Origin: a virus
Lineage: Duplodnaviria; Heunggongvirae; Uroviricota; Caudoviricetes
Length of the DNA: 10,322 bases
Reading direction: 5' to 3' (one strand)
IMG/VR virus record: IMGVR_UViG_2693429623_000011
A program made the position numbers and the translations under genes. Below are positions 203-10,271 of this stretch, piece by piece. The notes below the pieces were generated by a model. The model saw only the letters and a program-made list of their open reading frames with translations, had not been told where the DNA came from and did not search any database. How positions within the stretch are numbered: position 1 is the stretch's first letter; each line of letters starts with the position of its first letter.

Positions 203-343
203 TTACTGCTTACACTGTAAGAACGCCGCAAACTCCGCTCCCCAGAAGCTCATCCGTATTTCACACAGCGAACCGTGCAACATCCAGATGATGAGGATTG
301 CCGTCACGCAGAACGTGATGGTCGTAAGCGATTTTTGCGACAT
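203..343 (-). CDS. hok: Hok/Gef-family type I toxin (small membrane peptide, 46 aa)
   Basis: Manually translated minus-strand ORF, below the six-frame track cutoff: MSQKSLTTITFCVTAILIIWMLHGSLCEIRMSFWGAEFAAFLQCKQ. It has an N-terminal hydrophobic helix followed by the SLCEIR and AAF motifs shared with Hok, HokA and Gef. AAGGAG lies 8 nt upstream of the ATG, and the gene sits in the +1 overlap with the mok-like ORF. Confidence 0.75.
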   Translation of the reverse strand: MSQKSLTTITFCVTAILIIWMLHGSLCEIRMSFWGAEFAAFLQCKQ

Positions 344-794: not shown

Positions 795-824
795 AGCGAC
801 CTCCCTTAACGTAGTGCAGGGGCT

Positions 825-853
825 ATTCTAAGTTGTTCTGGCTCATACTCCAA
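825..853 (-). promoter_or_regulatory. Candidate sigma70 promoter for ogr
   Basis: On the minus strand: -35 TTGGAG (complement of 848-853), a 17-nt spacer, and -10 TAGAAT (complement of 825-830), about 30 nt upstream of the ogr ATG. Confidence 0.25.
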
Positions 854-902
854 CAGCCAGTCCGTTTCGAGCGAAAAGCGGTGATTTAACTCTTGAAGAA
901 AT

Positions 903-930
903 AGGCTTTGATACGATTTATCCAAAGCCT
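903..930 (-). terminator. Candidate terminator downstream of the AT-rich cargo gene
   Basis: Inverted repeat AGGCTTTG(903-910)/CAAAGCCT(923-930), followed on the minus strand by ATTTCTTC. It sits between the cargo-gene stop (1038) and the ogr promoter region. Confidence 0.3.
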
Positions 931-1037
931 GTAAAAGATTGGAATGTTTTTTATCCTGTCATCTATTTTGGGAAAAGATCAGGAAATAGTTATGCACTTA
1001 TAGATTTACTATAGCATTGTATTATTTGAGTACACCC

Positions 1038-2540
1038 TCATGTTTTGATTTGTGCGCTAATAGAACTTTTCTGTCTTTTCTTCTGCTCTTGAATGTATGT
1101 CTGCACCATTTCTGTTATGGTTGAAAATGCACTATGTTCTTCTATAGTTATTTTTAATTTAAATGTTTTAATGACCGGATTGGTAAGGTTATTTGCATCA
1201 ACTCTCACCTCAATTGCACCATTCACTTTCTTTGGTTTGTTGGCTGTATATACGAACAACGGGAATATTTCTTCTTTGACTTGATGACGCCACTCTTCGC
1301 ATTCCAGCGATACAACTTGAACTGGCTCATTTCTCTTTTCTTTATAATAAAAATCGTTTTTATCCCTTTCTGTTGGAGTAAGAGATAACAAAGGACCAAT
1401 TTCTTTTGAAATTATACTGGATAGCGGTGTTTCCAAAGCTCCCCCAGCGTAAGGCATTCTTTCTGTTACGCCACATACACTACGCCATTTTCCTTTGGGG
1501 GCGGTAGGGGCTGAAGGTAGGTCAATCCTTTTGCTTTCAGTCAGCTCTTCCATTATCTCCCAATTAAATCCACACAGACGAAAATCTCCTTTTGCTGTAA
1601 ATGTTACCACAGCACGTTCAGCGATAGTATAACCTGTGTTTTGTAATAAAAACGACAGCGGGTAATTTATTGCCTTCGGATTAATATGAGTATGACAGTT
1701 TTTCAGTATTTCTTCACACTGCTTTTTCCAAAGTGGATAATGTTTTTCTTTATAAAGAGAAATATCATCTGCTGATACAGGGAAATACTCCTGTTGACTA
1801 AATGACTTGATGATTTTTTCTAGTGATTGTGGGGTAGTTTGTTCATTGTCAAAGTTTGTAACCAATGGGAATGCATCCGTTAGTTGACAAAGCAAATTAT
1901 CAACTTCATATTCAGATAAAGCTGTATAATAAGGAAGTACAATATTTAATTGCTCGTCATCGGCTACTTTAATGCTGAAATCGGGCATAGACTGAGTGAA
2001 TTGCTTCAGCTTAGCTTCCAGCAATTTAATTTGTTTATCCTTTTCATCTGGCTCAGCAGGAAGCAACCATGAAGAAGGCACTTTATAGCAGATTATATTA
2101 TGTTTTATTGCTGAAAAACGTGGACCGCTATCATTGGTAATGATTGCCACCTCCGAATCTGGATCGTCAGCGCAATACCCTGCCGCAATACCAACAAAAC
2201 GATCGTCGGCCTCCTGATAATCCAATTGTTCAGATAACTGTTCACATGGTTTCAGGCTTAGATCCATGGTAAGAAAAACTCGCGGCGAGCGTTCACGAAT
2301 AACAAGAGTCATGTCAGTTGAATCAACTACTTGATTAAATAGGCTAGCAGCCTTCCTTGCTTTTTTGGATAGGCGGGAATTACCTTGCCCTTTCTGGCGG
2401 TCAATCTCTTGCTGAATGGGCCTTGTAATAATGATACATACTTCATCACAAGCAGTAATCTCGGAAAAATTTACCTGCGTCAAGTCCTTGCATTGTAGAA
2501 AAATGTTTGAGTCTGGGAATAAATACAGCTTTTTGTTCAT
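1038..2540 (-). CDS. Orphan 500-aa protein with an N-terminal PIN-like nuclease domain and an uncharacterised C-terminal region; candidate phage-carried defence/abortive-infection cargo
   Basis: A long uninterrupted ORF in a markedly AT-rich segment, whereas the flanking phage genes are noticeably GC-richer. A stop-free 1.5-kb ORF is very unlikely by chance in AT-rich DNA. GAGG lies 6 nt upstream of the ATG. N-terminal motifs fit a PIN fold: LYLFPD10SN, IQQE45ID, EAD112D113RFVGIAAGY, AIIT135ND137. No Walker A, HEPN or helicase motifs were seen in the C-terminal ~340 aa. Confidence 0.75.
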   Translation of the reverse strand: MNKKLYLFPDSNIFLQCKDLTQVNFSEITACDEVCIIITRPIQQEIDRQKGQGNSRLSKKARKAASLFNQVVDSTDMTLVIRERSPRVFLTMDLSLKPCEQLSEQLDYQEADDRFVGIAAGYCADDPDSEVAIITNDSGPRFSAIKHNIICYKVPSSWLLPAEPDEKDKQIKLLEAKLKQFTQSMPDFSIKVADDEQLNIVLPYYTALSEYEVDNLLCQLTDAFPLVTNFDNEQTTPQSLEKIIKSFSQQEYFPVSADDISLYKEKHYPLWKKQCEEILKNCHTHINPKAINYPLSFLLQNTGYTIAERAVVTFTAKGDFRLCGFNWEIMEELTESKRIDLPSAPTAPKGKWRSVCGVTERMPYAGGALETPLSSIISKEIGPLLSLTPTERDKNDFYYKEKRNEPVQVVSLECEEWRHQVKEEIFPLFVYTANKPKKVNGAIEVRVDANNLTNPVIKTFKLKITIEEHSAFSTITEMVQTYIQEQKKRQKSSISAQIKT

Positions 2541-2765
2541 TCAAACCTCAACTATGTCAATGGTGTTAGATTAATATAATAATAGTTATCAATTGGTTAT
2601 CAAAGCATGATTCTTACCACCCCTGATGTCAGGTAGGAAAACACCATATGTTTCTGCTCTGTTTTTCCTTAGAAATAGGCATCCTTGCTGGAACAAAGCG
2701 AGCAGCTATATTGACTCTATGTTGTGAGTGTGTTGATCCGTTCTGAGTTAATACATTTAAGTTGC

Positions 2766-3875
2766 TCACTCTGTTTCTGCTATCCATTCCGGGATTTTTG
2801 CCTCAAGCTCAAGCTGCGTGGTAAAGCCGCTGTTATCAATGGTGTGCTCGGCTTTTGCAATAATCCAGTCCTGATTATCAATCTCGCTTTTAAATCCTGT
2901 TACCGTGCCATGCATTTCGGGGTAGAGTTCTGCACGTCCATGCGCCAGTGTGATGGAGAATGATGCGGCTCCGCGTTGTAGCTGCTGCCACTTTGCCGCC
3001 GCTGCACGTCTTGCTGCCTGCTCGTTCTGATAAGTTTTGCGTAACACAAACACGTTGCCTTCCGCACCTTCCATATAGTCGCCTTCCCGGCTGCTGCTTT
3101 TCTCCTTTTTTGGTTTTGACGGTTTGCGGCGTTTCACGCTGACTTTTTTCTTTTTCCCGTAATTAAGATCAAGCCAGTAAGCGCGTACCCCCGTATACGC
3201 TTCGCGGTCAGCAATGCGGAACTGATGGCGATCGCCGCTGCTGCGTGTGATGGCGAACGAGGGCAACGGCTGGCCCTGTGCGTTCACGCCACCACCGGGC
3301 ATGATGAATAACAGATTACCGCTTTTTACCGTGGTGATTGCGCCCAGCATTTCCGCCATGCGCGTAAGGAAGGACATGTCGCTTTCTTCGGTCTGGTCGG
3401 CGTGGTCGATTTCGATATCCATCAGCATTTCGCTGATTTGCGGTTTCAGACCATACCGATGAGCGATGGCGGATACCACACGCTCAACGGTCACATCATG
3501 CCAGGACACCTCACGTTTAACGTTAAATTCAGCCCGAAAATCTGCGCTTCTGGCTGAAACAGTCAGCCTGTCCGGCGGTCCTTCGTGAGCGATTTCATCA
3601 ACAATGTAAGTGCCTTTTTCTGTCAGCGGTTCTCCCTTCCAGCCAATGAGAACCGTCAGGCGCGCGCCCCGTGGCGGTAGCTGCAACTGACCATCCGCAT
3701 CATCCAGCGTGATGGTGAGCTGGTCCGCCTCAAATCCCCGGTTGTCGGTCAGTGACAGGCTCATCAGGCGCTCTGCCACGCCTGACAGCGTTTTACCCTC
3801 CGCGAGAATATCAAAATCCGGCATTTTCACGGGGTCTGTGCCCTGACTGAGCAATTGCATGGTGGTGTCGGTCAT
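2766..3875 (-). CDS. D: P2 gpD-like tail protein (phage late control gene D family)
   Basis: The translation resembles the gpD family, especially the C-terminal block ...ITLAHGRAELYPEMHGTVTGFKSEIDNQDWIIAKAEHTIDNSGFTTQLELE. Start chosen at ATG 3875 (MTDTTMQ...) because AGGGAGGGAG lies 5 nt upstream. The longer ORF reaching 4007 has no ribosome-binding site and would nearly abut FI. Confidence 0.8.
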   Translation of the reverse strand: MTDTTMQLLSQGTDPVKMPDFDILAEGKTLSGVAERLMSLSLTDNRGFEADQLTITLDDADGQLQLPPRGARLTVLIGWKGEPLTEKGTYIVDEIAHEGPPDRLTVSARSADFRAEFNVKREVSWHDVTVERVVSAIAHRYGLKPQISEMLMDIEIDHADQTEESDMSFLTRMAEMLGAITTVKSGNLLFIMPGGGVNAQGQPLPSFAITRSSGDRHQFRIADREAYTGVRAYWLDLNYGKKKKVSVKRRKPSKPKKEKSSSREGDYMEGAEGNVFVLRKTYQNEQAARRAAAAKWQQLQRGAASFSITLAHGRAELYPEMHGTVTGFKSEIDNQDWIIAKAEHTIDNSGFTTQLELEAKIPEWIAETE

Positions 3876-4032
3876 CTGCTCCCTCCCTGTGTGGCATGGT
3901 CGCATGTGCGTGCGGAGGGGGTTACTGCTTTTTGTTGTCGCCGTGGCGGGAGAATGGCGCAGGGGTGAGATTACGCGCGTGGTGGGTGATGATTGTTGCC
4001 GAATCATTTAACGGATACAAGGGGTTGAAGCT
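3876..4032. promoter_or_regulatory. Divergent intergenic region between D (minus) and FI (plus); presumed promoter region for both
   Basis: A 157-bp non-coding gap between two divergently oriented genes, each with a strong Shine-Dalgarno sequence. No canonical Ogr-dependent late-promoter dyad (TGT-N12-ACA) was found by eye. Confidence 0.3.
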
Positions 4033-5217
4033 ATGAGTGAAACTCGTTTTCATGGTGCCCGTGTTACGGAAAATACCGACCTGGTAACAGCGATTAACGA
4101 TGTTGATTCCAGCGTTATCGGTATCGTGGCAACGGCGGATGATGCGGACGCGGAGCTGTTCCCGCTGAACAAGCCCACACTGCTGCCCCGCGTCAATGAC
4201 GTGCTGGGAAAATGCGGAACAACGGGGACGCTTTATCGTGCGCTTAAGGCCATCGCAGACCAGGTGAGCACAAAGGTGATCGTCGTTCGCGTGGCTGAAC
4301 ACAAAGAAGAAGACGGAAAAACGCAGGATCAACTGGTTATCGGTGGTTCTGAATCTGACGGCAGCTATACGGGGATGTATGCGCTGCTTGTTGCAGAGCA
4401 GGATGAAAGCATCGGATACCGTCCGCGTATTCTGGCCGCGCCGGAGCTGGACACGGAGGCGGTGACAAAATCCCTGTGCGTGATTGCGGGTAAACTGCGC
4501 GCGTTTGTGTATGCCTCATGTCATGACTGTAACACGATGGCTGAGGCAATTACCTACCGCCAGAAATTCAACGAACGTGAGGTGATGCTCTTATGGCCGG
4601 ACTTCATCGCCTACAACCCGAAAAGTGGCAAAAACGAAACGTTCCCCGCGCCTGCCTATGCGTGCGGCCTTCGTGCGTACATTGACCATGAGCAGGGCTG
4701 GCACAAATCGCTGTCCAACGTTCCGGTTAAAAATGTGCTGGGGATGTCCAGGCATGTGTTCTGGTCGTTGCAGGCCGAAGACAGTGATGCCAACAGCCTC
4801 AACAACAAAGAAATCACGACCATTATTCGTCGCAACGGGTTCCGCTTCTGGGGCAACCGCACACCGGAAACGAACGCCTACATCTTTGAGGTGTATACCC
4901 GAACCGCACAGGTGCTGGCTGATTCAATTGCGGAAGCGCAGTTTGAAACCATCGACAGTCCACTGACGCCTGCGAACGTGAAGGATGTTATCGGTGCCAT
5001 CAGGGCAAAACTGGATTCACTGGTTACTGCCGGGAAACTGATTGGGGCGTCGTGCTGGTATGACGTGGTGGATAACGGCACCACGAATTTACGTCAGGGG
5101 CGCGTGCGTATTCGCTACAAATATACGCCTGTTCCCCCGCTGGAAGACATGGAGCTTTACCAGTCGTTTACTGATGAATTCTTTGGTCCCGCATTTGCGG
5201 TGCTGGGAGGTGCCTGA
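4033..5217 (+). CDS. FI: Contractile tail sheath protein (P2 gpFI-like)
   Basis: The 394-aa product has N-terminal similarity to P2 FI (…GIVATADDADAELFPLNKP…TGTLYRALKAIADQ…). AAGGGG ribosome-binding site is present. The stop overlaps the FII start (ATGA). Confidence 0.9.
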   Translation: MSETRFHGARVTENTDLVTAINDVDSSVIGIVATADDADAELFPLNKPTLLPRVNDVLGKCGTTGTLYRALKAIADQVSTKVIVVRVAEHKEEDGKTQDQLVIGGSESDGSYTGMYALLVAEQDESIGYRPRILAAPELDTEAVTKSLCVIAGKLRAFVYASCHDCNTMAEAITYRQKFNEREVMLLWPDFIAYNPKSGKNETFPAPAYACGLRAYIDHEQGWHKSLSNVPVKNVLGMSRHVFWSLQAEDSDANSLNNKEITTIIRRNGFRFWGNRTPETNAYIFEVYTRTAQVLADSIAEAQFETIDSPLTPANVKDVIGAIRAKLDSLVTAGKLIGASCWYDVVDNGTTNLRQGRVRIRYKYTPVPPLEDMELYQSFTDEFFGPAFAVLGGA

Positions 5218-5729
5218 TGGCTGTACCAAAACATCTTCGCTTTTTTACGCTGTTTGTGGATGGTGAAAACGAAGTGGGTAAGGTGACGTCCGTCACTCTG
5301 CCTAAGCTGACGCGCAAAACCGACAGCTACCGGGGTGGTGGCATGATGGGAGCGGTAAGTATTGATCTCGGCCTGGATGACTCCGCGCTTGATGCGAGCT
5401 TTGTCATGGGGGGCGCAGTTCGTGAGCTGTTCCTTAAGTATGGCGGCACGATTGACGGTACGCTGCTGCGTTTTGCGGGTGAATACTACACCGACGCTGA
5501 AAGCGACCTGTATGAAGTCGAAATGCGCGGACGTGTGACGGAAATTGATATGGGGGAAGCCAAACAGGGCGAAGCCACATCACACACTTACGCCATTAAA
5601 AACACCTACTACAAGCTGAGTGTTAACGATCGCCCGTTGTGGGAGATTGACCTGCTGAACTTCATTTACCGGAAGGACGGCAGGGACATTGTGCCCGATC
5701 GCATCCGTTCCGCGCTCGGGCTTGGCTGA
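5217..5729 (+). CDS. FII: Tail tube protein (P2 gpFII-like)
   Basis: A 170-aa ORF immediately after the sheath gene, translationally coupled (ATGA overlap) with GGGAGG upstream. Size and position match P2 FII. Confidence 0.88.
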   Translation: MAVPKHLRFFTLFVDGENEVGKVTSVTLPKLTRKTDSYRGGGMMGAVSIDLGLDDSALDASFVMGGAVRELFLKYGGTIDGTLLRFAGEYYTDAESDLYEVEMRGRVTEIDMGEAKQGEATSHTYAIKNTYYKLSVNDRPLWEIDLLNFIYRKDGRDIVPDRIRSALGLG

Positions 5730-5783
5730 TAAGTAATATGCAGGCGGCGCAGTGCGTCGCCTCTGACTGAAAGGAGTTTCCTG

Positions 5784-6149
5784 ATGAAAGAGACGAAAAA
5801 CATCGATACCGAAAACACGGTCGTTGCTGACACTGTGAAAGAAACCAGTGAGCGTGGCGTAAAACTTACCCAACCAATTGAGCGAGGCGGCGAAAAAATC
5901 ACGTATGTGGAGATCACCGGGGCTATTGAGCAGGCTGGATCTCTGCGAGATTTGTCGCTGTCTGATGTGCTGAATTTGAAAGCGGAATCCATGTTTACGC
6001 TGCTGTCACGCGTGACATCACCGCGACTGGATGAAGTGACGATCAAAAAAATGGCATCCCGTGACTTTATTCAGTTATGTGTGGTTGCCGTAAATTTTTT
6101 GAGCGGTGCGGACTCTGGCGAGAAGAACGAACAGGCGACGGAAGCCTGA
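5784..6149 (+). CDS. E: Tail assembly chaperone (P2 gpE-like), zero-frame product
   Basis: A 121-aa ORF between the tube and tape-measure genes, with AAGGAG 7 nt upstream. It contains a TTTTTTG slippery site near its 3' end, as in P2 E. Confidence 0.85.
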   Translation: MKETKNIDTENTVVADTVKETSERGVKLTQPIERGGEKITYVEITGAIEQAGSLRDLSLSDVLNLKAESMFTLLSRVTSPRLDEVTIKKMASRDFIQLCVVAVNFLSGADSGEKNEQATEA

Positions 6150-6313
6150 TCACGGTTGTGTGCTTTGAGCACATAGAAGACTTTGTGGCGGATATTGCCG
6201 CCATTTTTAACTGGTCGCCCGCCGAAATCTTCATGATGACGCCCGGCGAAGTGGTTAGCTGGCGTGAGCGGGCGGCACTTCGCAGCGGGAATGCAGACAA
6301 TGAAGACTCTTGA
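5784..6313 (+). CDS. E+E': Tail assembly chaperone frameshift product (gpE+E'-like), made by programmed -1 ribosomal frameshift at 6095-6101
   Basis: The -1 frame ORF 6077-6313 is open across the slippery heptamer T TTT TTG and runs to a TGA at 6311-6313 that overlaps the T start. Predicted fusion is about 176 aa (...VVAVNFL then ERCGLWREERTGDG...). This matches the conserved chaperone frameshift upstream of tape measure genes. Confidence 0.75.
6095..6101 (+). promoter_or_regulatory. Programmed -1 frameshift slippery heptamer (T TTT TTG)
   Basis: The heptamer is in X XXY YYZ register relative to the gpE frame (codons AAT TTT TTG), identical in sequence to the P2 E/E' slip site. Confidence 0.75.
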
Positions 6314-9137
6314 TATCCGGGTCGCTTTCAGCGCCGTTGACAGGCTGACCCGGCCTGCCGAAAACGCCCGCCGCCTGATGGGGCAGTTTGGTGACTCCAT
6401 CCAGCGAACGCAGGGGGCGATCAAAAATCTCGAGCGTCAGGCGCGTTCATTTGAGCGCGCCCGTGACGCTGTCAGTAAAGCGGATGCGGGCATCGTGAAA
6501 GCACGACGCCAGCTTAACGCCCTTAATCAGTTACAACGCACGGGTACAGTGCTCAGCGAAAAACAACAAAAGCTGATGCAGCAGTTAAGCACCCGGCTTG
6601 AACGCCTGAATGAATCGCGCACACGGGAAATTCAGAAAATGCGGGAACTTGGCGGAGAGCTGAAACGCCACGGCATTTCCCTGACAGGCAGCGATAACAC
6701 CATCCAGCAGGCCATCAGACGCACCGGACAATACAACAACCAGCTTGAACGCGAACGGCGGGCGCTTGCGCGTGTAACGCAGGCGCGTGAGCGGTATTCA
6801 CGCGCGCAGGAAACAGCGGGAAAACTGAAAACAGGTGGTGCGCTGGCAACAGGTGCGGCGGCAGCGGGCGGCTATGCTGCCGGGCGTTTTTTGCAGCCCG
6901 CTATCGGGTTCGGGAAAGAGATGTCCCGTGTTCAGGCACTGACGCGAATCGATAAAAACAGCCCGCAGTTTAAGGCGCTGCGTGAGCAGGCGTTAAAACT
7001 TGGCTCTGAAACGCAGTTCACCGCAGGCGATGCCGCCAGTGGACAGGCATTTCTTGCAATGGCTGGTTTCACACCGCAGGCCATTCAGGCTGCGCTTCCC
7101 GGCGTGCTGAGCATGGCAACGGCTGGCGGTATGGACCTCGGCGAGACGGCGGATATTGGTTCCAATATCCTGACGCAGTTCGGCCTCTCTGCTGACCAGA
7201 TGGACCGGGTCGGTGACACACTTACCGCAGCGTTTACCCGTACCAACACTGACCTTCGCGCACTGGGCGAAACCATGAAATATGCAGGTCCGGTGGCGGG
7301 TAAGCTGGGAATATCGCTGGAGCAGGCCGCAGCGATGGCGGGCGTGCTGGCGAAGATGGGTATCAGGGGGAGTGATGCAGGTACAGCGTTGCGTAAAAGC
7401 CTGGCCAATCTGTCATCACCGCCAAAGGCAGCGGCAGAAGCACTGAAAGAGCTGGGGGTGTCAGTTGCTGACGCCAAAGGCAAAATGCGCCCGATGGAGA
7501 ATGTGCTGGCCGATCTCTATAAAGCCACCCGCAAATACGGGGAGGTTGACCGGGTATCGTTCTTTAAGGACATTGCCGGAGAAGAGGCTTTCACATCATT
7601 TATGGGCCTCGTTGATGCGGCAGGNNNNNNNNNNNNNNNNNNNNNNNNNNNNNNNNNNNNNNNNNNNGCCAAACTGAGAAAAGAACTTGAAGGCGCGCGC
7701 GGTGAGGCAGAACGCACGGCAAAGGTTATGGCCAATAACCTTGATGGCAACCTGAAATCACTCGGCAGTGCATGGGAAGGTCTGCGTATTCGCATCAGTG
7801 ATCTGGTTGACGGTCCGCTGCGTTCTGTCACGCAGTGGCTCACGCGGGTTGTCTCAAAGGTGACGGCGCTGGCGCAGGCCCACCCGGCACTGACGCGCCA
7901 GTTACTGATAGCGGGAGGCGCACTGCTGGCGACAACAGCAACGGTTGGTTCGTTGTCTCTGGTTATTGGGGTGCTTCACGGGAAGCTGGCTACGTTGCGT
8001 CTCGGTTTTTCTCTCCTGACCGAATCAATGAATGTTGTCAGGGTTCTGCCTGCATTATGGGGAATGGTGACGGGTTCCGTTTCTTTACTTGGTGGCGCTA
8101 TCGGGGCGCTGTTCAGTCCGGTTAGTCTTATCGTGGCTGCGCTTGCCGGAGCTGCCGTTCTTATCTGGAAATACTGGGATCCCATCAGGGCATTTTTTGC
8201 CGGGGTGTTCAGCGGGATTATGGAAAGGCTGACCCCGTTGCGCGAAACCTTTGAACGGTTTGGCCCTGTTTTTGATGTCGTGCGCGATGGGATTATTCAG
8301 GTCTTTAACTGGTTTAAATCGCTGCTGTCACCGATGGAGTCCAGCAAGGAAACGCTGGATAAATGTGCCAGTGCTGGCGAGATATTCGGTAACGTTCTTG
8401 GCGGTGCGTTACAACTTGTTCTGACACCTGCAAAAATGCTACTGGATACGCTGGCGTGGATACTTGAAAAACTTGGCGTCCTTCCGGATGAAGCGGAAAG
8501 GGCGCGCAAGAAAATCGAAGACGCACAGCGTGCGGCCATTCTTCAGGACAAGGTTGCCTTGCTTCAGGGGAACCTGGCGAAAATCAATCCGCCGAAGCCT
8601 GTGGAAAATGGCAATGGCACCGGAGGTGATAAACCCAAAGACAACAAACCGCTCACAGACAGCAATACCGGGACGCTACGCAGACTCAGCAAAATTGCTG
8701 ATAACACAGGTAAGCTGGTTGATGAGACGAAAAAACGCATTGGCCCCGGCGATATTGTCTTTAAGAACCTGCCCCGCGCACTTGCTGTTCGTGGGGAGTG
8801 GCAGGAGCGGAAGATTGCGCAGGTCAGTAAGCCTGCCCCCGCAATTAATATCACACCCGTGGTCCCGGCTCCGCTGCCTCCGGCGCTGGTCCCTGTTGTT
8901 GCGGCCAGCTCCCGCCCGGTGGCGGAGGCCATACGCTCTCCAGTGGCATCAGTTCCTGTAACTTCCCGTAACCGGGAGCCTGTTGCCTCCGGATTTGGTG
9001 GTGAAATTCATGTTCATCTGCATAACGTTGTTACGCAGAATCCCCGCGAACTGGCGAAACTGGTCGGTGAAATGGTCAGGGCAGAAATGGAACGGCGCGC
9101 CCGTGCCGGGCGTGGCAGTTTTTACGATAAAGATTGA
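6300..9137 (+). CDS. T: Tail tape measure protein (P2 gpT-like); an internal 43-nt N-run leaves part of the sequence unknown
   Basis: A ~945-aa ORF after E/E' with an N-terminal coiled-coil-like region rich in R/Q/E/L and a central hydrophobic segment (LLIAGGALLATTATVGSLSLVIGVLHG...). Start is uncertain: ATG 6300 (MKTLDIR), ATG 6291 or GTG 6264 are all possible. Confidence 0.85.
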   Translation: MKTLDIRVAFSAVDRLTRPAENARRLMGQFGDSIQRTQGAIKNLERQARSFERARDAVSKADAGIVKARRQLNALNQLQRTGTVLSEKQQKLMQQLSTRLERLNESRTREIQKMRELGGELKRHGISLTGSDNTIQQAIRRTGQYNNQLERERRALARVTQARERYSRAQETAGKLKTGGALATGAAAAGGYAAGRFLQPAIGFGKEMSRVQALTRIDKNSPQFKALREQALKLGSETQFTAGDAASGQAFLAMAGFTPQAIQAALPGVLSMATAGGMDLGETADIGSNILTQFGLSADQMDRVGDTLTAAFTRTNTDLRALGETMKYAGPVAGKLGISLEQAAAMAGVLAKMGIRGSDAGTALRKSLANLSSPPKAAAEALKELGVSVADAKGKMRPMENVLADLYKATRKYGEVDRVSFFKDIAGEEAFTSFMGLVDAAXXXXXXXXXXXXXXXAKLRKELEGARGEAERTAKVMANNLDGNLKSLGSAWEGLRIRISDLVDGPLRSVTQWLTRVVSKVTALAQAHPALTRQLLIAGGALLATTATVGSLSLVIGVLHGKLATLRLGFSLLTESMNVVRVLPALWGMVTGSVSLLGGAIGALFSPVSLIVAALAGAAVLIWKYWDPIRAFFAGVFSGIMERLTPLRETFERFGPVFDVVRDGIIQVFNWFKSLLSPMESSKETLDKCASAGEIFGNVLGGALQLVLTPAKMLLDTLAWILEKLGVLPDEAERARKKIEDAQRAAILQDKVALLQGNLAKINPPKPVENGNGTGGDKPKDNKPLTDSNTGTLRRLSKIADNTGKLVDETKKRIGPGDIVFKNLPRALAVRGEWQERKIAQVSKPAPAINITPVVPAPLPPALVPVVAASSRPVAEAIRSPVASVPVTSRNREPVASGFGGEIHVHLHNVVTQNPRELAKLVGEMVRAEMERRARAGRGSFYDKD
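7625..7667. other. Masked or unknown sequence (43 N) inside the tape measure gene
   Basis: A run of N. The reading frame is continuous across it, which suggests masking of real sequence rather than an arbitrary-length gap. Confidence 0.95.
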
Positions 9138-9149
9138 GGAGTCATGGCC

Positions 9150-9638
9150 ATGATGATGATCTACGGCATGTTTGTTTTTGAGCTGCGTACATTGCCGCAT
9201 CAGCAGTTACAGCAAAACAAAAGCTGGCGGCATGTGAAAAATGAACGCGTTAACCGTTCGGCAAGCTGGCAGTATATCGGTGCAGGTGATGAGCGCATCG
9301 TTCTTTCTGGTGTGCTTTATCCTGAAATTACAGGTGGCGAAGTGTCGCTGTCGCTGCTGACCACGCAGGCGTATACAGGACGACCCTGGCCTCTGATTGA
9401 TGGCGTCGGGCAGATTTACGGCATGTATGTCCTGACCGAAACGAATACGACCCGCTCCGAGTTTGATCGCTACGGTAAGGCGAAAAAGATAGAATTTTCA
9501 CTGACTCTTGAACGCTGTGATGAGGATTTGCGGGAGCGCCTGCAATCCTCATCGTTCAGCGATATGCTGTCCGGCTTCAAAGATAAGGTAACATCATCCC
9601 TTAACAGCGCGGCCAGTTCAGTTAAAGGGTTGTTCTGA
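9150..9638 (+). CDS. U: Tail protein gpU-like
   Basis: Product MMMIYGMFVFELRTLPHQQLQQNKSWRHV...WQYIGAGDERIVLSGVLYPEITGG closely resembles P2 gpU. Start set at ATG 9150, with GAGGAG (9136-9141) 8 nt upstream. ATG 9144 is too close to the Shine-Dalgarno sequence. Confidence 0.88.
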   Translation: MMMIYGMFVFELRTLPHQQLQQNKSWRHVKNERVNRSASWQYIGAGDERIVLSGVLYPEITGGEVSLSLLTTQAYTGRPWPLIDGVGQIYGMYVLTETNTTRSEFDRYGKAKKIEFSLTLERCDEDLRERLQSSSFSDMLSGFKDKVTSSLNSAASSVKGLF

Positions 9639-9701: not shown

Positions 9702-10271
9702 NNNNNNNNNNNNNNNNNNNNNNNNNNNNNNNNNNNNNNNNNNNNNNNNNNNNNNNNNNNNNNNNNNNNNNNNNNNNNNNNNNNNNNNNNNNNNNNNNNN
9801 NNNNNNNNNNNNNNNNNNNNNNNNNNNNNNNNNNNNNNNNNNNNNNNNNNNNNNNNNNNNNNNNNNNNNNNNNNNNNNNNNNNNNNNNNNNNNNNNNNNN
9901 NNNNNNNNNNNNNNNNNNNNNNNNNNNNNNNNNNNNNNNNNNNNNNNNNNNNNNNNNNNNNNNNNNNNNNNNNNNNNNNNNNNNNNNNNNNNNNNNNNNN
10001 NNNNNNNNNNNNNNNNNNNNNNNNNNNNNNNNNNNNNNNNNNNNNNNNNNNNNNNNNNNNNNNNNNNNNNNNNNNNNNNNNNNNNNNNNNNNNNNNNNNN
10101 NNNNNNNNNNNNNNNNNNNNNNNNNNNNNNNNNNNNNNNNNNNNNNNNNNNNNNNNNNNNNNNNNNNNNNNNNNNNNNNNNNNNNNNNNNNNNNNNNNNN
10201 NNNNNNNNNNNNNNNNNNNNNNNNNNNNNNNNNNNNNNNNNNNNNNNNNNNNNNNNNNNNNNNNNNNNNNN
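9702..10271. other. Masked or unknown sequence (570 N)
   Basis: A run of N. The minus-strand ORF 9674-10303 in the track is an artefact of translating N. Confidence 0.95.

Follow-up and report, generated by a model that had tools for sequence, protein, structure and literature searches.

What is a single AT-rich gene doing between the tail gene D and the late-gene activator gene ogr of a P2-family prophage? The question is raised by a 10,322-nucleotide stretch of viral DNA (IMG/VR record IMGVR_UViG_2693429623_000011; Caudoviricetes), which as a whole is called the window below. An earlier note on this DNA, made from its letters alone, described a segment of low guanine-plus-cytosine (GC) content that separates the two genes, holds one gene for a 500-residue protein with a PIN-like amino terminus, and might be a single-gene defence system. 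The answer given here has two parts. The segment is cargo, a cassette of one gene that is exchanged horizontally, inserted in a recombination hotspot of a P88-like prophage. The cassette is probably (roughly 60%) a defence gene, whose product would combine sensor and nuclease in one autonomous protein and act by an abortive-infection-type mechanism. It is a strong candidate for a new family of single-gene defences against phages.

The insertion is read from alignment. When the window is compared by blastn with an Escherichia coli genome in which D and ogr are adjacent (L070), the matching flanks end at position 834 and resume at 2755, leaving an insert of 1,920 bp; in empty-site genomes, the spacer between the two genes is 51 bp. 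The insert has a GC content of 38.0%, versus 53.9% for the remaining window; GC at third codon positions is 32% in the PIN gene versus 58% in D; and the GC profile runs at 0.31-0.45 over positions ~750-2850 and at 0.48-0.61 on both sides. The list of open reading frames (ORFs) places one 500-residue gene on the minus strand between D and ogr. The insertion, the lower GC content, and the gene itself are thus as first described.

The junctions are simple. The left one is the fixed breakpoint of the site; the right one lies 11 bp past the D stop codon; and the two have the microhomology TAAGTT in common. The left breakpoint is immediately upstream (in the ogr orientation) of a −10-like hexamer, TAGAAT, about 30 nt before the ogr ATG. 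This hexamer is putatively an ogr promoter element, in which case each cargo would supply whatever precedes it. No transposon-type terminal inverted or direct repeats are present at the insert ends, and a transposon origin of the cassette was rejected for want of them. A search of the window against Rfam returned no structured-RNA family at threshold.

Judged by its matches, the host element is a P88-like Peduoviridae prophage. The window is 99.7% identical to the ihfA-adjacent prophage of E. coli O111:H- 11128 and of other O111 strains. With Escherichia phages PhiR44_2 and P88 the window shares 95-97% identity, and other matches include Xuanwuvirus and Gemsvirus (Peduoviridae). The original label of a P2-like prophage is therefore right as to family, but the element is not P2 proper.

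Is the site special? A 351-bp probe spanning the empty D-ogr junction matches 1,200 E. coli genomes; the junction is uninterrupted in 720 of them and interrupted in about 40%. Among 60 rows sampled from all matching records, the occupied ones break at one place, at probe position ~186-190, which corresponds to window position ~834. Of 5,426 E. coli genomes, 57 (about 1%) carry the PIN cassette; isolated P88-like phages have an empty junction. At least nine alternative cargo types occupy the sampled sites (records L071-L078 and L084), including a GmrSD_N plus HNH restriction protein (527 aa); a PIN_12 protein (356 aa); a DUF3800 protein (389 aa, in O104:H4 2009EL-2071); an SEC-C-motif protein (379 aa); a ParA-like AAA_31 ATPase (352 aa); hypothetical proteins of 340 aa (phage 500465-2) and 385 aa; and an IS3 element with two small ORFs. 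Most of these alternative cargo proteins have no match in PADLOC. Variable occupancy between conserved phage genes, alternative cargo, and foreign composition are all as expected of moron-type cargo.

The D-ogr junction is, then, a recurrent cargo exchange site with a fixed breakpoint in this lineage. The earlier note had set it apart from the classic P2 cargo loci, which is correct for P2; it is not a singular site, however, but a recurrent hotspot. Earlier work covers it only loosely: a third P2-like hotspot has been noted between a tail protein and CI (10.1101/2024.10.15.618418), and minor P2 hotspots are listed in a 2026 survey (PMC13586616). The cargo here consists mostly of uncharacterised single genes, making the site a source of further candidates that the classic two-hotspot view of P2 misses.

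What does the gene encode? By profile score, acidic residues, and predicted α/β/α fold together, the protein is a member of the PIN_4 family. Residues 10-151 match Pfam PIN_4 (PF13638) with 33.9 bits against a cut-off of 21.9 (E 4.5e-8). Across 174 full-length homologues, eight residues reach at least 95% conservation: D10, N12, E45, D47, K50, R56, D112, and D137. The predicted catalytic tetrad among them (D10, E45, D112, and D137) is intact in the window, and is invariant or nearly so in a smaller alignment of 38 sequences; D113 and T135, which also belonged to the acidic signature first proposed, are 85-95% conserved in the larger set. A full-length AlphaFold2 (AF2) model, built from the 38 homologues, has a mean predicted local distance difference test score (pLDDT) of 84, with values of about 87-95 over residues 1-160. 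Foldseek aligns it, each time with probability 1.0, to SMG6 (2hww, TMt 0.58), AF0591 (1o4w, TMt 0.68), and Nmd4 (8rdd, TMt 0.61); the PIN domain of Rrp44/Dis3 is matched as well. Profile and structure searches therefore bear out the nuclease fold. Two PIN_4 members, SMG6 and PhoH2, are RNA-specific nucleases (PMC5499597).

The rest of the protein forms a second module. Modelled alone, residues 156-500 have a pLDDT of 84.7 and a predicted template modelling score (pTM) of 0.72, and are predicted to comprise a linker helix, a small α/β subdomain, a helical pair, an immunoglobulin-like β-sandwich, and a carboxyl-terminal helix; a loop of the β-sandwich (residues 358-388) is disordered and poorly conserved. 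These residues match no Pfam, NCBIfam, or PADLOC family, and a sequence-profile search of the Protein Data Bank found no relative of them. The 500-residue protein has no Walker A motif and no transmembrane segment, and its single Rx5H is not conserved. That the last ~340 residues carry no recognised motif, as had been stated, thus holds. The module has diverged more quickly than the PIN domain (its median identity to the query is 28%, versus 36%), yet many of its positions are strongly conserved: W158, P186, P225, Y263, Y268, W271, N301, G303, P345, P348, F397, C414, R418, H419, A449, and N451. A zinc site formed by C275, H283, C414, and H419 was considered and dropped: C275 is less than 85% conserved in the 174 sequences, and only C414 and H419 reach 95%.

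The gene had been called an orphan, which it is not. A word-index search found 52 full-length relatives, with identity down to 28%, and an exhaustive phmmer search with the carboxyl-terminal module alone returned 874 representative clusters at 50% identity. Nearly all of these are proteins of 470-530 aa with the module at residues ~155-490, and the amino-terminal region is PIN_4 in the homologues checked by Pfam: the combination of PIN domain and module is obligate. Precomputed Pfam annotation gives most homologues this PIN_4 match too. The family is patchily distributed, occurs also on plasmids, and is found in the Gamma- and Alphaproteobacteria, Dehalococcoidia, Gemmatimonadota, Acidobacteriota, Planctomycetota, and Latescibacterota, in a metagenome-assembled genome of the Opitutales, and in others. 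P0081 (745 aa), the only protein found without a PIN domain before the module, was rejected as a case of a different effector, being probably a chimera produced by metagenomic gene calling. Its amino terminus has multiple transmembrane segments and is O-antigen-ligase-like; its carboxyl-terminal tail is of low complexity, does not align to the family, and resembles the product of a frameshift.

Where do the relatives reside? Several lie in other cargo sites of P2-like prophages: a 73%-identical copy in a Rahnella prophage, where it separates tail genes S and V (L002); copies of 68% (L065-67) and 52% identity (L003) in the A-Q (old/tin) hotspot; and a 52%-identical copy in the Z/fun-equivalent hotspot (L080), in a prophage whose tail block is inverted as in the window. 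Another is carried by an integrative and conjugative element (ICE) of Pectobacterium (L068). In L082 the homologue stands beside a Gabija-like pair (a 579-aa ATPase and a 472-aa UvrD helicase, 3501-6655), with integrases and a zeta toxin nearby. In L003, an Enterobacter P2-like A-Q hotspot, a divergently oriented 509-aa ATPase of AAA_21 type adjoins the homologue (7822-9351); this neighbour is not conserved at the other loci. The ATPase neighbours in L003 and L082 probably are separate systems in the same hotspot.

Distant homologues point in a related direction. Neighbourhoods were sampled at 58 homologue loci; the neighbours were clustered, and the recurrent clusters were annotated. In about 11-13 of the 58, the gene lies co-directionally inside a type I restriction-modification (R-M) operon, mostly directly between hsdS and hsdR, with gaps of 17-26 bp or overlapping stop and start codons. 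The order hsdS (Methylase_S)-homologue-hsdR occurs in L043, L044, L040, L028, L011, L020, and L023; L010 and L033 keep this order, interrupted by additional genes; and in L008 and L047 hsdR lies downstream of the homologue. At three loci, the gene is directly downstream of AbiEi/AbiEii. Recurring neighbour clusters are hsd genes, and the top cluster is present in at most 10 of the 58 loci. No partner gene is conserved across all 58, only subsets having hsd or AbiE neighbours in common; because none is conserved across the family, the gene is taken to be a stand-alone unit.

In several of the R-M-embedded loci, an ORF with two signatures, that of a Pol-beta/MNT-type nucleotidyltransferase and that of hsdS (Methylase_S), lies upstream of the PIN homologue (L010, 7056-8687; L011, 8329-9972; L020, 8225-9973; L033, 7010-8698; L007, 8350-10002). 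Each probably is an MNT-like gene merged with hsdS by crude ORF calling. If so, a second small defence- or toxin-antitoxin-like gene would be embedded in the same R-M operons.

The cassette also brings its own leader. A Shine-Dalgarno-like GAGG stands 6 nt ahead of the PIN-gene ATG. Among homologous cassettes at different insertion sites the leader is kept: GAGGTT and the ATG are invariant in eight cassettes; GTTGAGGTTT-nn-ATG is present in six of the eight; and a TAnAAT-like element lies further upstream. A leader block of about 80 nt, including CCTGACATCAGG, is common to the window, Rahnella, and P0004 copies, and the L079 leader (about 6850-6950) has a tandem (TTTTTGAT)n expansion in its AT-rich part. 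The conserved leader may be a regulatory region, and its movement with the gene from site to site supports an autonomous expression unit. Of the expression signals that had been proposed for the gene, the Shine-Dalgarno sequence stands. The promoter does not rise above chance frequency (8 promoter-like sites in the region, against 6.0 ± 2.4 expected from shuffled sequences), and the terminator hairpin is weak and was not called by the terminator scan.

These observations suggest a mechanism. The PIN gene would be transcribed from its own leader in the lysogen. Its PIN_4 domain would be a metal-dependent endoribonuclease that, before infection, is held inactive by the helical and β-sandwich module or jointly with it. 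When a competing phage infects, the module would sense a phage protein or a disturbed host complex, and the PIN site would become active. Cleavage of cellular or phage RNA (tRNA, rRNA, or mRNA) would then stop translation and phage production. That the outcome is protection against phage is suggested by the company that the family keeps: the old/tin, Z/fun, and S-V hotspots; the ICE; the Gabija-like pair; AbiE; and type I R-M operons. These contexts lend support to the single-gene defence system that the earlier note proposed, and defence itself we infer from them.

Several points weigh against a defence gene. No PADLOC, NCBIfam, or meaningful PHROG match exists, so the call is one of guilt by association, and no paper was found that mentions WP_001035742 or its relatives. 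About three-quarters of the distant loci have no recurring defence neighbour in the clustering, most neighbours there being unannotated. The other cargo at the D-ogr site is mostly uncharacterised, so the site is not proven to be defence-specific, and prophage hotspots hold anti-defence and virulence cargo too. Orientation of the two domains is uncertain in the full-length model (pTM 0.53). Finally, the promoter and terminator predictions are at chance level.

Among the alternatives, the likeliest, though itself improbable, is a guard of the PrrC kind. The protein would be a latent RNase silenced on an Hsd complex through its carboxyl-terminal module, and freed when a phage anti-restriction protein (Ocr-, Stp-, or ArdA-like) inactivates that complex; the prophage copy would use the type I system of the host chromosome. 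The tight or overlapping hsdS-hsdR placement in the R-M-embedded loci fits this, as does the behaviour of PrrC itself, which stays latent on EcoprrI until a T4 inhibitor of that enzyme acts (PMC1484252). Only about one-fifth of the sampled loci are R-M-embedded, however, and genes so embedded often are independent defence genes. Nor is there any relation to PrrC in sequence or domains (no ABC ATPase; no Walker A). Because the enterobacterial copies, that of the window included, are stand-alone genes of prophage hotspots or of an ICE and have no hsd genes around them, an R-M-guard mechanism cannot be general.

A bolder version of this idea, held at the same low odds, extends it to the whole family. 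The PIN plus β-sandwich proteins would be a new and widespread group of latent "retaliation" RNases, like PrrC in function and unrelated to it in structure. Their module would dock on type I R-M complexes or another conserved host machine and detect anti-restriction proteins of phages, and prophages would have captured stand-alone copies that guard the R-M systems of their hosts. The conserved patch named for docking comprises Y263/Y268/W271, N301/G303, C414/R418/H419, and N451.

Less probable than a guard is a selfish addiction or stabilisation module, in which a PIN toxin is fused to a carboxyl-terminal neutralising domain; such a protein would stabilise the prophage, or any other element carrying it, and do nothing against other phages. 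Toxins of toxin-antitoxin systems are indeed common among bacterial PIN domains (PMC5499597), the family occurs on an ICE and on plasmids, and a hok-type killer gene lies two genes away at the same prophage end. A single polypeptide without a separate labile antitoxin makes classical post-segregational killing hard, though, and no gene for a DNA-binding antitoxin lies upstream. The earlier statement that no antitoxin-like partner adjoins the gene is sustained: the cassette flanks hold no plausible small ORF (none above 52 aa, none conserved), and no partner recurs across the 58 loci. Placement between hsdS and hsdR, beside AbiE, and in defence hotspots favours defence instead, and toxin-antitoxin-like modules at such places often have proved defensive.

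A gene of benefit to the prophage itself has a slimmer chance again. It would supply an RNase for lytic growth (host RNA shut-off or RNA processing) or a counter-defence. The gene does have the same orientation as D and ogr among the late genes, where late read-through is possible; the insert displaces sequence upstream of the −10-like element of ogr; and prophage hotspots can hold anti-defence genes. Yet a tblastn search with the PIN protein found no match in 50,697 deposited phage genomes, isolated P88-like phages lack the insert, the majority of homologues lie on bacterial chromosomes, in R-M operons or islands and outside any prophage context, and the conserved leader travels with the gene.

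Very improbable is a cellular RNA-metabolism enzyme or functionless passenger (a housekeeping or stress PIN RNase hitch-hiking on mobile elements): PIN_4 does include PhoH2- and YlaK-type and eukaryotic RNA-decay enzymes (PMC5499597), and the conserved aromatic and basic patch of the module could simply bind RNA, but the gene is present in about 1% of E. coli genomes, is patchy across phyla, and always has variable or mobile contexts, while strong conservation of length and catalytic residues over 174 divergent sequences argues against decay.

The coordinates of the cassette and its flanks are collected in Table 1.

Table 1. Features of the cassette and its flanking genes, with window coordinates.
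Feature	Position	Strand	Evidence or detail
ogr (late-gene activator), flanking core gene	534-794	−	Pfam Ogr_Delta E 5.2e-14; RefSeq annotation
Left junction TTCTAAGTT, fixed hotspot breakpoint	826-834		Junction sequences
Inserted cargo cassette (1,920 bp, 38.0% GC)	~835-2754		blastn against empty-site E. coli L070
Weak candidate terminator hairpin, then AUUUCUUC	903-930	−	RNA fold −10.7 kcal/mol, z = −2.08
PIN gene, 500 aa, WP_001035742.1	1038-2540	−	ORF list; RefSeq "PIN domain-containing protein" in E. coli O111:H- 11128
Carboxyl-terminal module, residues 156-500	1041-2075	−	AF2 model of the module alone
PIN_4 nuclease domain (predicted), residues 1-155; D10, E45, D112, D137	2076-2540	−	Pfam, conservation, Foldseek, pLDDT
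Cassette 5' leader	2541-2754	−	Shine-Dalgarno GAGG 2546-2549; sigma-70-like TTGATA-16-TATTAT 2603-2576
Right junction ATTTAAGTT	2746-2754		Junction sequences
Tail gene D, flanking core gene	2766-3866	−	Pfam Phage_GPD E 5e-17

The neighbourhood of the cassette merits some comment. The D ORF extends to position 4007; its likely start, 3866, is taken from a 366-aa annotation (the 1,101-bp "phage late control D" coding sequence of L074). PGAP labels D as a truncated 266-aa "VgrG/Pvc8" coding sequence plus a pseudo-ORF in many genomes; the D ORF is intact in the window. In P2, the tail genes FI, FII, E, E', T, and U form one co-directional operon with D. Here, beside D and ogr, the tail block FI-FII-E-E'-T-U (4033-9638, plus strand) is on the other strand from those two genes, and ~3867-4032 separates it from the divergent D. 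The same inversion is present in the O111 record (L001, 20267-27119) and in every other matching, annotated E. coli or phage record examined. Because the tail block is divergent from it, D needs its own promoter in this lineage.

Two runs of N interrupt the window, at 7625-7667 (43 bases) and 9702-10271 (570 bases). The second covers the site where the O111 reference (L001, 27276-27848) has a serine O-acetyltransferase gene, flanked by U and the tail-fibre assembly gene. This gene, which the run of N masks, is the Z/fun-equivalent hotspot cargo of the prophage. A 46-aa Hok/Gef-family killer ORF (203-343, minus strand), whose sequence includes SLCEIR and EFAAFL, stands between ogr and the ihfA-adjacent end of the prophage; neither Sok nor any other Rfam family reached threshold. 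In some relatives (L070 and L072), a Com-like regulator and a DNA methyltransferase come after hok.

If the gene is protective, it stands for a widespread and compact (1.5 kb) family of PIN-RNase defences with a previously unannotated sensor module, carried by prophages of Shiga-toxigenic E. coli O111 and, as a family, across many bacterial phyla. Should there be no phage phenotype, it would still be a conserved mobile PIN nuclease.

How does the protein compare with known systems? Within the PIN_4 branch (SMG6, Swt1, and PhoH2/YlaK), it has the same profile match and acidic residues, and its predicted fold superposes on those of SMG6, Nmd4, and Rrp44. It differs in being fused to a 345-residue helical and β-sandwich module, found almost only in this family, and, relative to PhoH2, in lacking the PhoH ATPase; nuclease activity here is predicted. 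VapBC systems pair a small adjacent antitoxin with a toxin of ~130-150 aa, whereas the protein here has 500 residues with an obligate 345-residue module; VapBC membership was rejected on length and on the lack of an antitoxin gene. Fused toxin-sensors of the CapRel type offer a further comparison.

As cargo, the cassette resembles the classic P2 examples (old/tin at A-Q, and Z/fun between G and FI): each is a self-contained, AT-rich gene whose slot, flanked by conserved Peduoviridae genes, is variable, and the A-Q and Z/fun-equivalent slots of other prophages hold homologues of this very PIN protein. Site (D-ogr) and genus (P88-like) are different here.

Among defence systems, PADLOC-DB 2.0.0, which covers known and candidate systems to 2023, including HEC and PDC, gives 0 families at E ≤ 1, in line with the earlier claim that the system is undescribed; a motif search of the DefensePredictor supplements gave no match among the rows listed. 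In function, the protein most resembles single-protein PIN defences of the DS-3 type. DS-3 (DefensePredictor, WP_022645725.1, 340 aa) likewise is one PIN protein without an antitoxin; it is an experimentally validated E. coli defence that requires its catalytic residues, and its authors propose that it is auto-inhibited until infection (PMC13092281). Identity with DS-3 was rejected (hhalign: probability 0.2%, E 0.33): the sizes differ, and the DS-3 PIN domain is split between the amino and carboxyl termini with no β-sandwich module, whereas here it is contiguous and amino-terminal. PIN effectors also are present in HEC-03 (ABC ATPase plus VapC-like PIN; 10.1101/2024.01.29.577857) and DS-5 (PIN plus DUF5830; PMC13092281), both validated anti-phage systems. 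Each is a two-gene system, whereas no partner is conserved here, and identity with either was rejected, as it was for HEC-09, which has a different architecture. The DS-5 PIN fragment and the PIN_12 cargo of the D-ogr site have no significant similarity to each other.

The last comparison is with PrrC and RloC. The order at the prr locus, which we take to be prrA(hsdM)-prrB(hsdS)-prrC-prrD(hsdR), puts prrC in the hsdS-X-hsdR position of the homologues; about one-fifth of the distant homologues hold this same hsdM-hsdS-X-hsdR slot. The resemblance is one of placement: the present protein has no ABC ATPase Pfam match, no Walker A motif, and an unrelated nuclease fold, and neither the window copy nor the other enterobacterial ones are linked to R-M genes. 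EcoprrI keeps PrrC silent until a T4 anti-restriction peptide activates it (PMC1484252, PMC3458546); prrC is always linked to an R-M locus, its homologue rloC rarely (PMC3458546). A latent second-line RNase of PrrC type would be the most economical functional analogy. Occupation of four Peduoviridae hotspots together with the prrC slot poses the question of whether such proteins are autonomous abortive-infection proteins or guards of restriction systems. Many such defence candidates exist; this one is widespread and compact, and its PrrC-like placement gives it an unusually clear experimental path.

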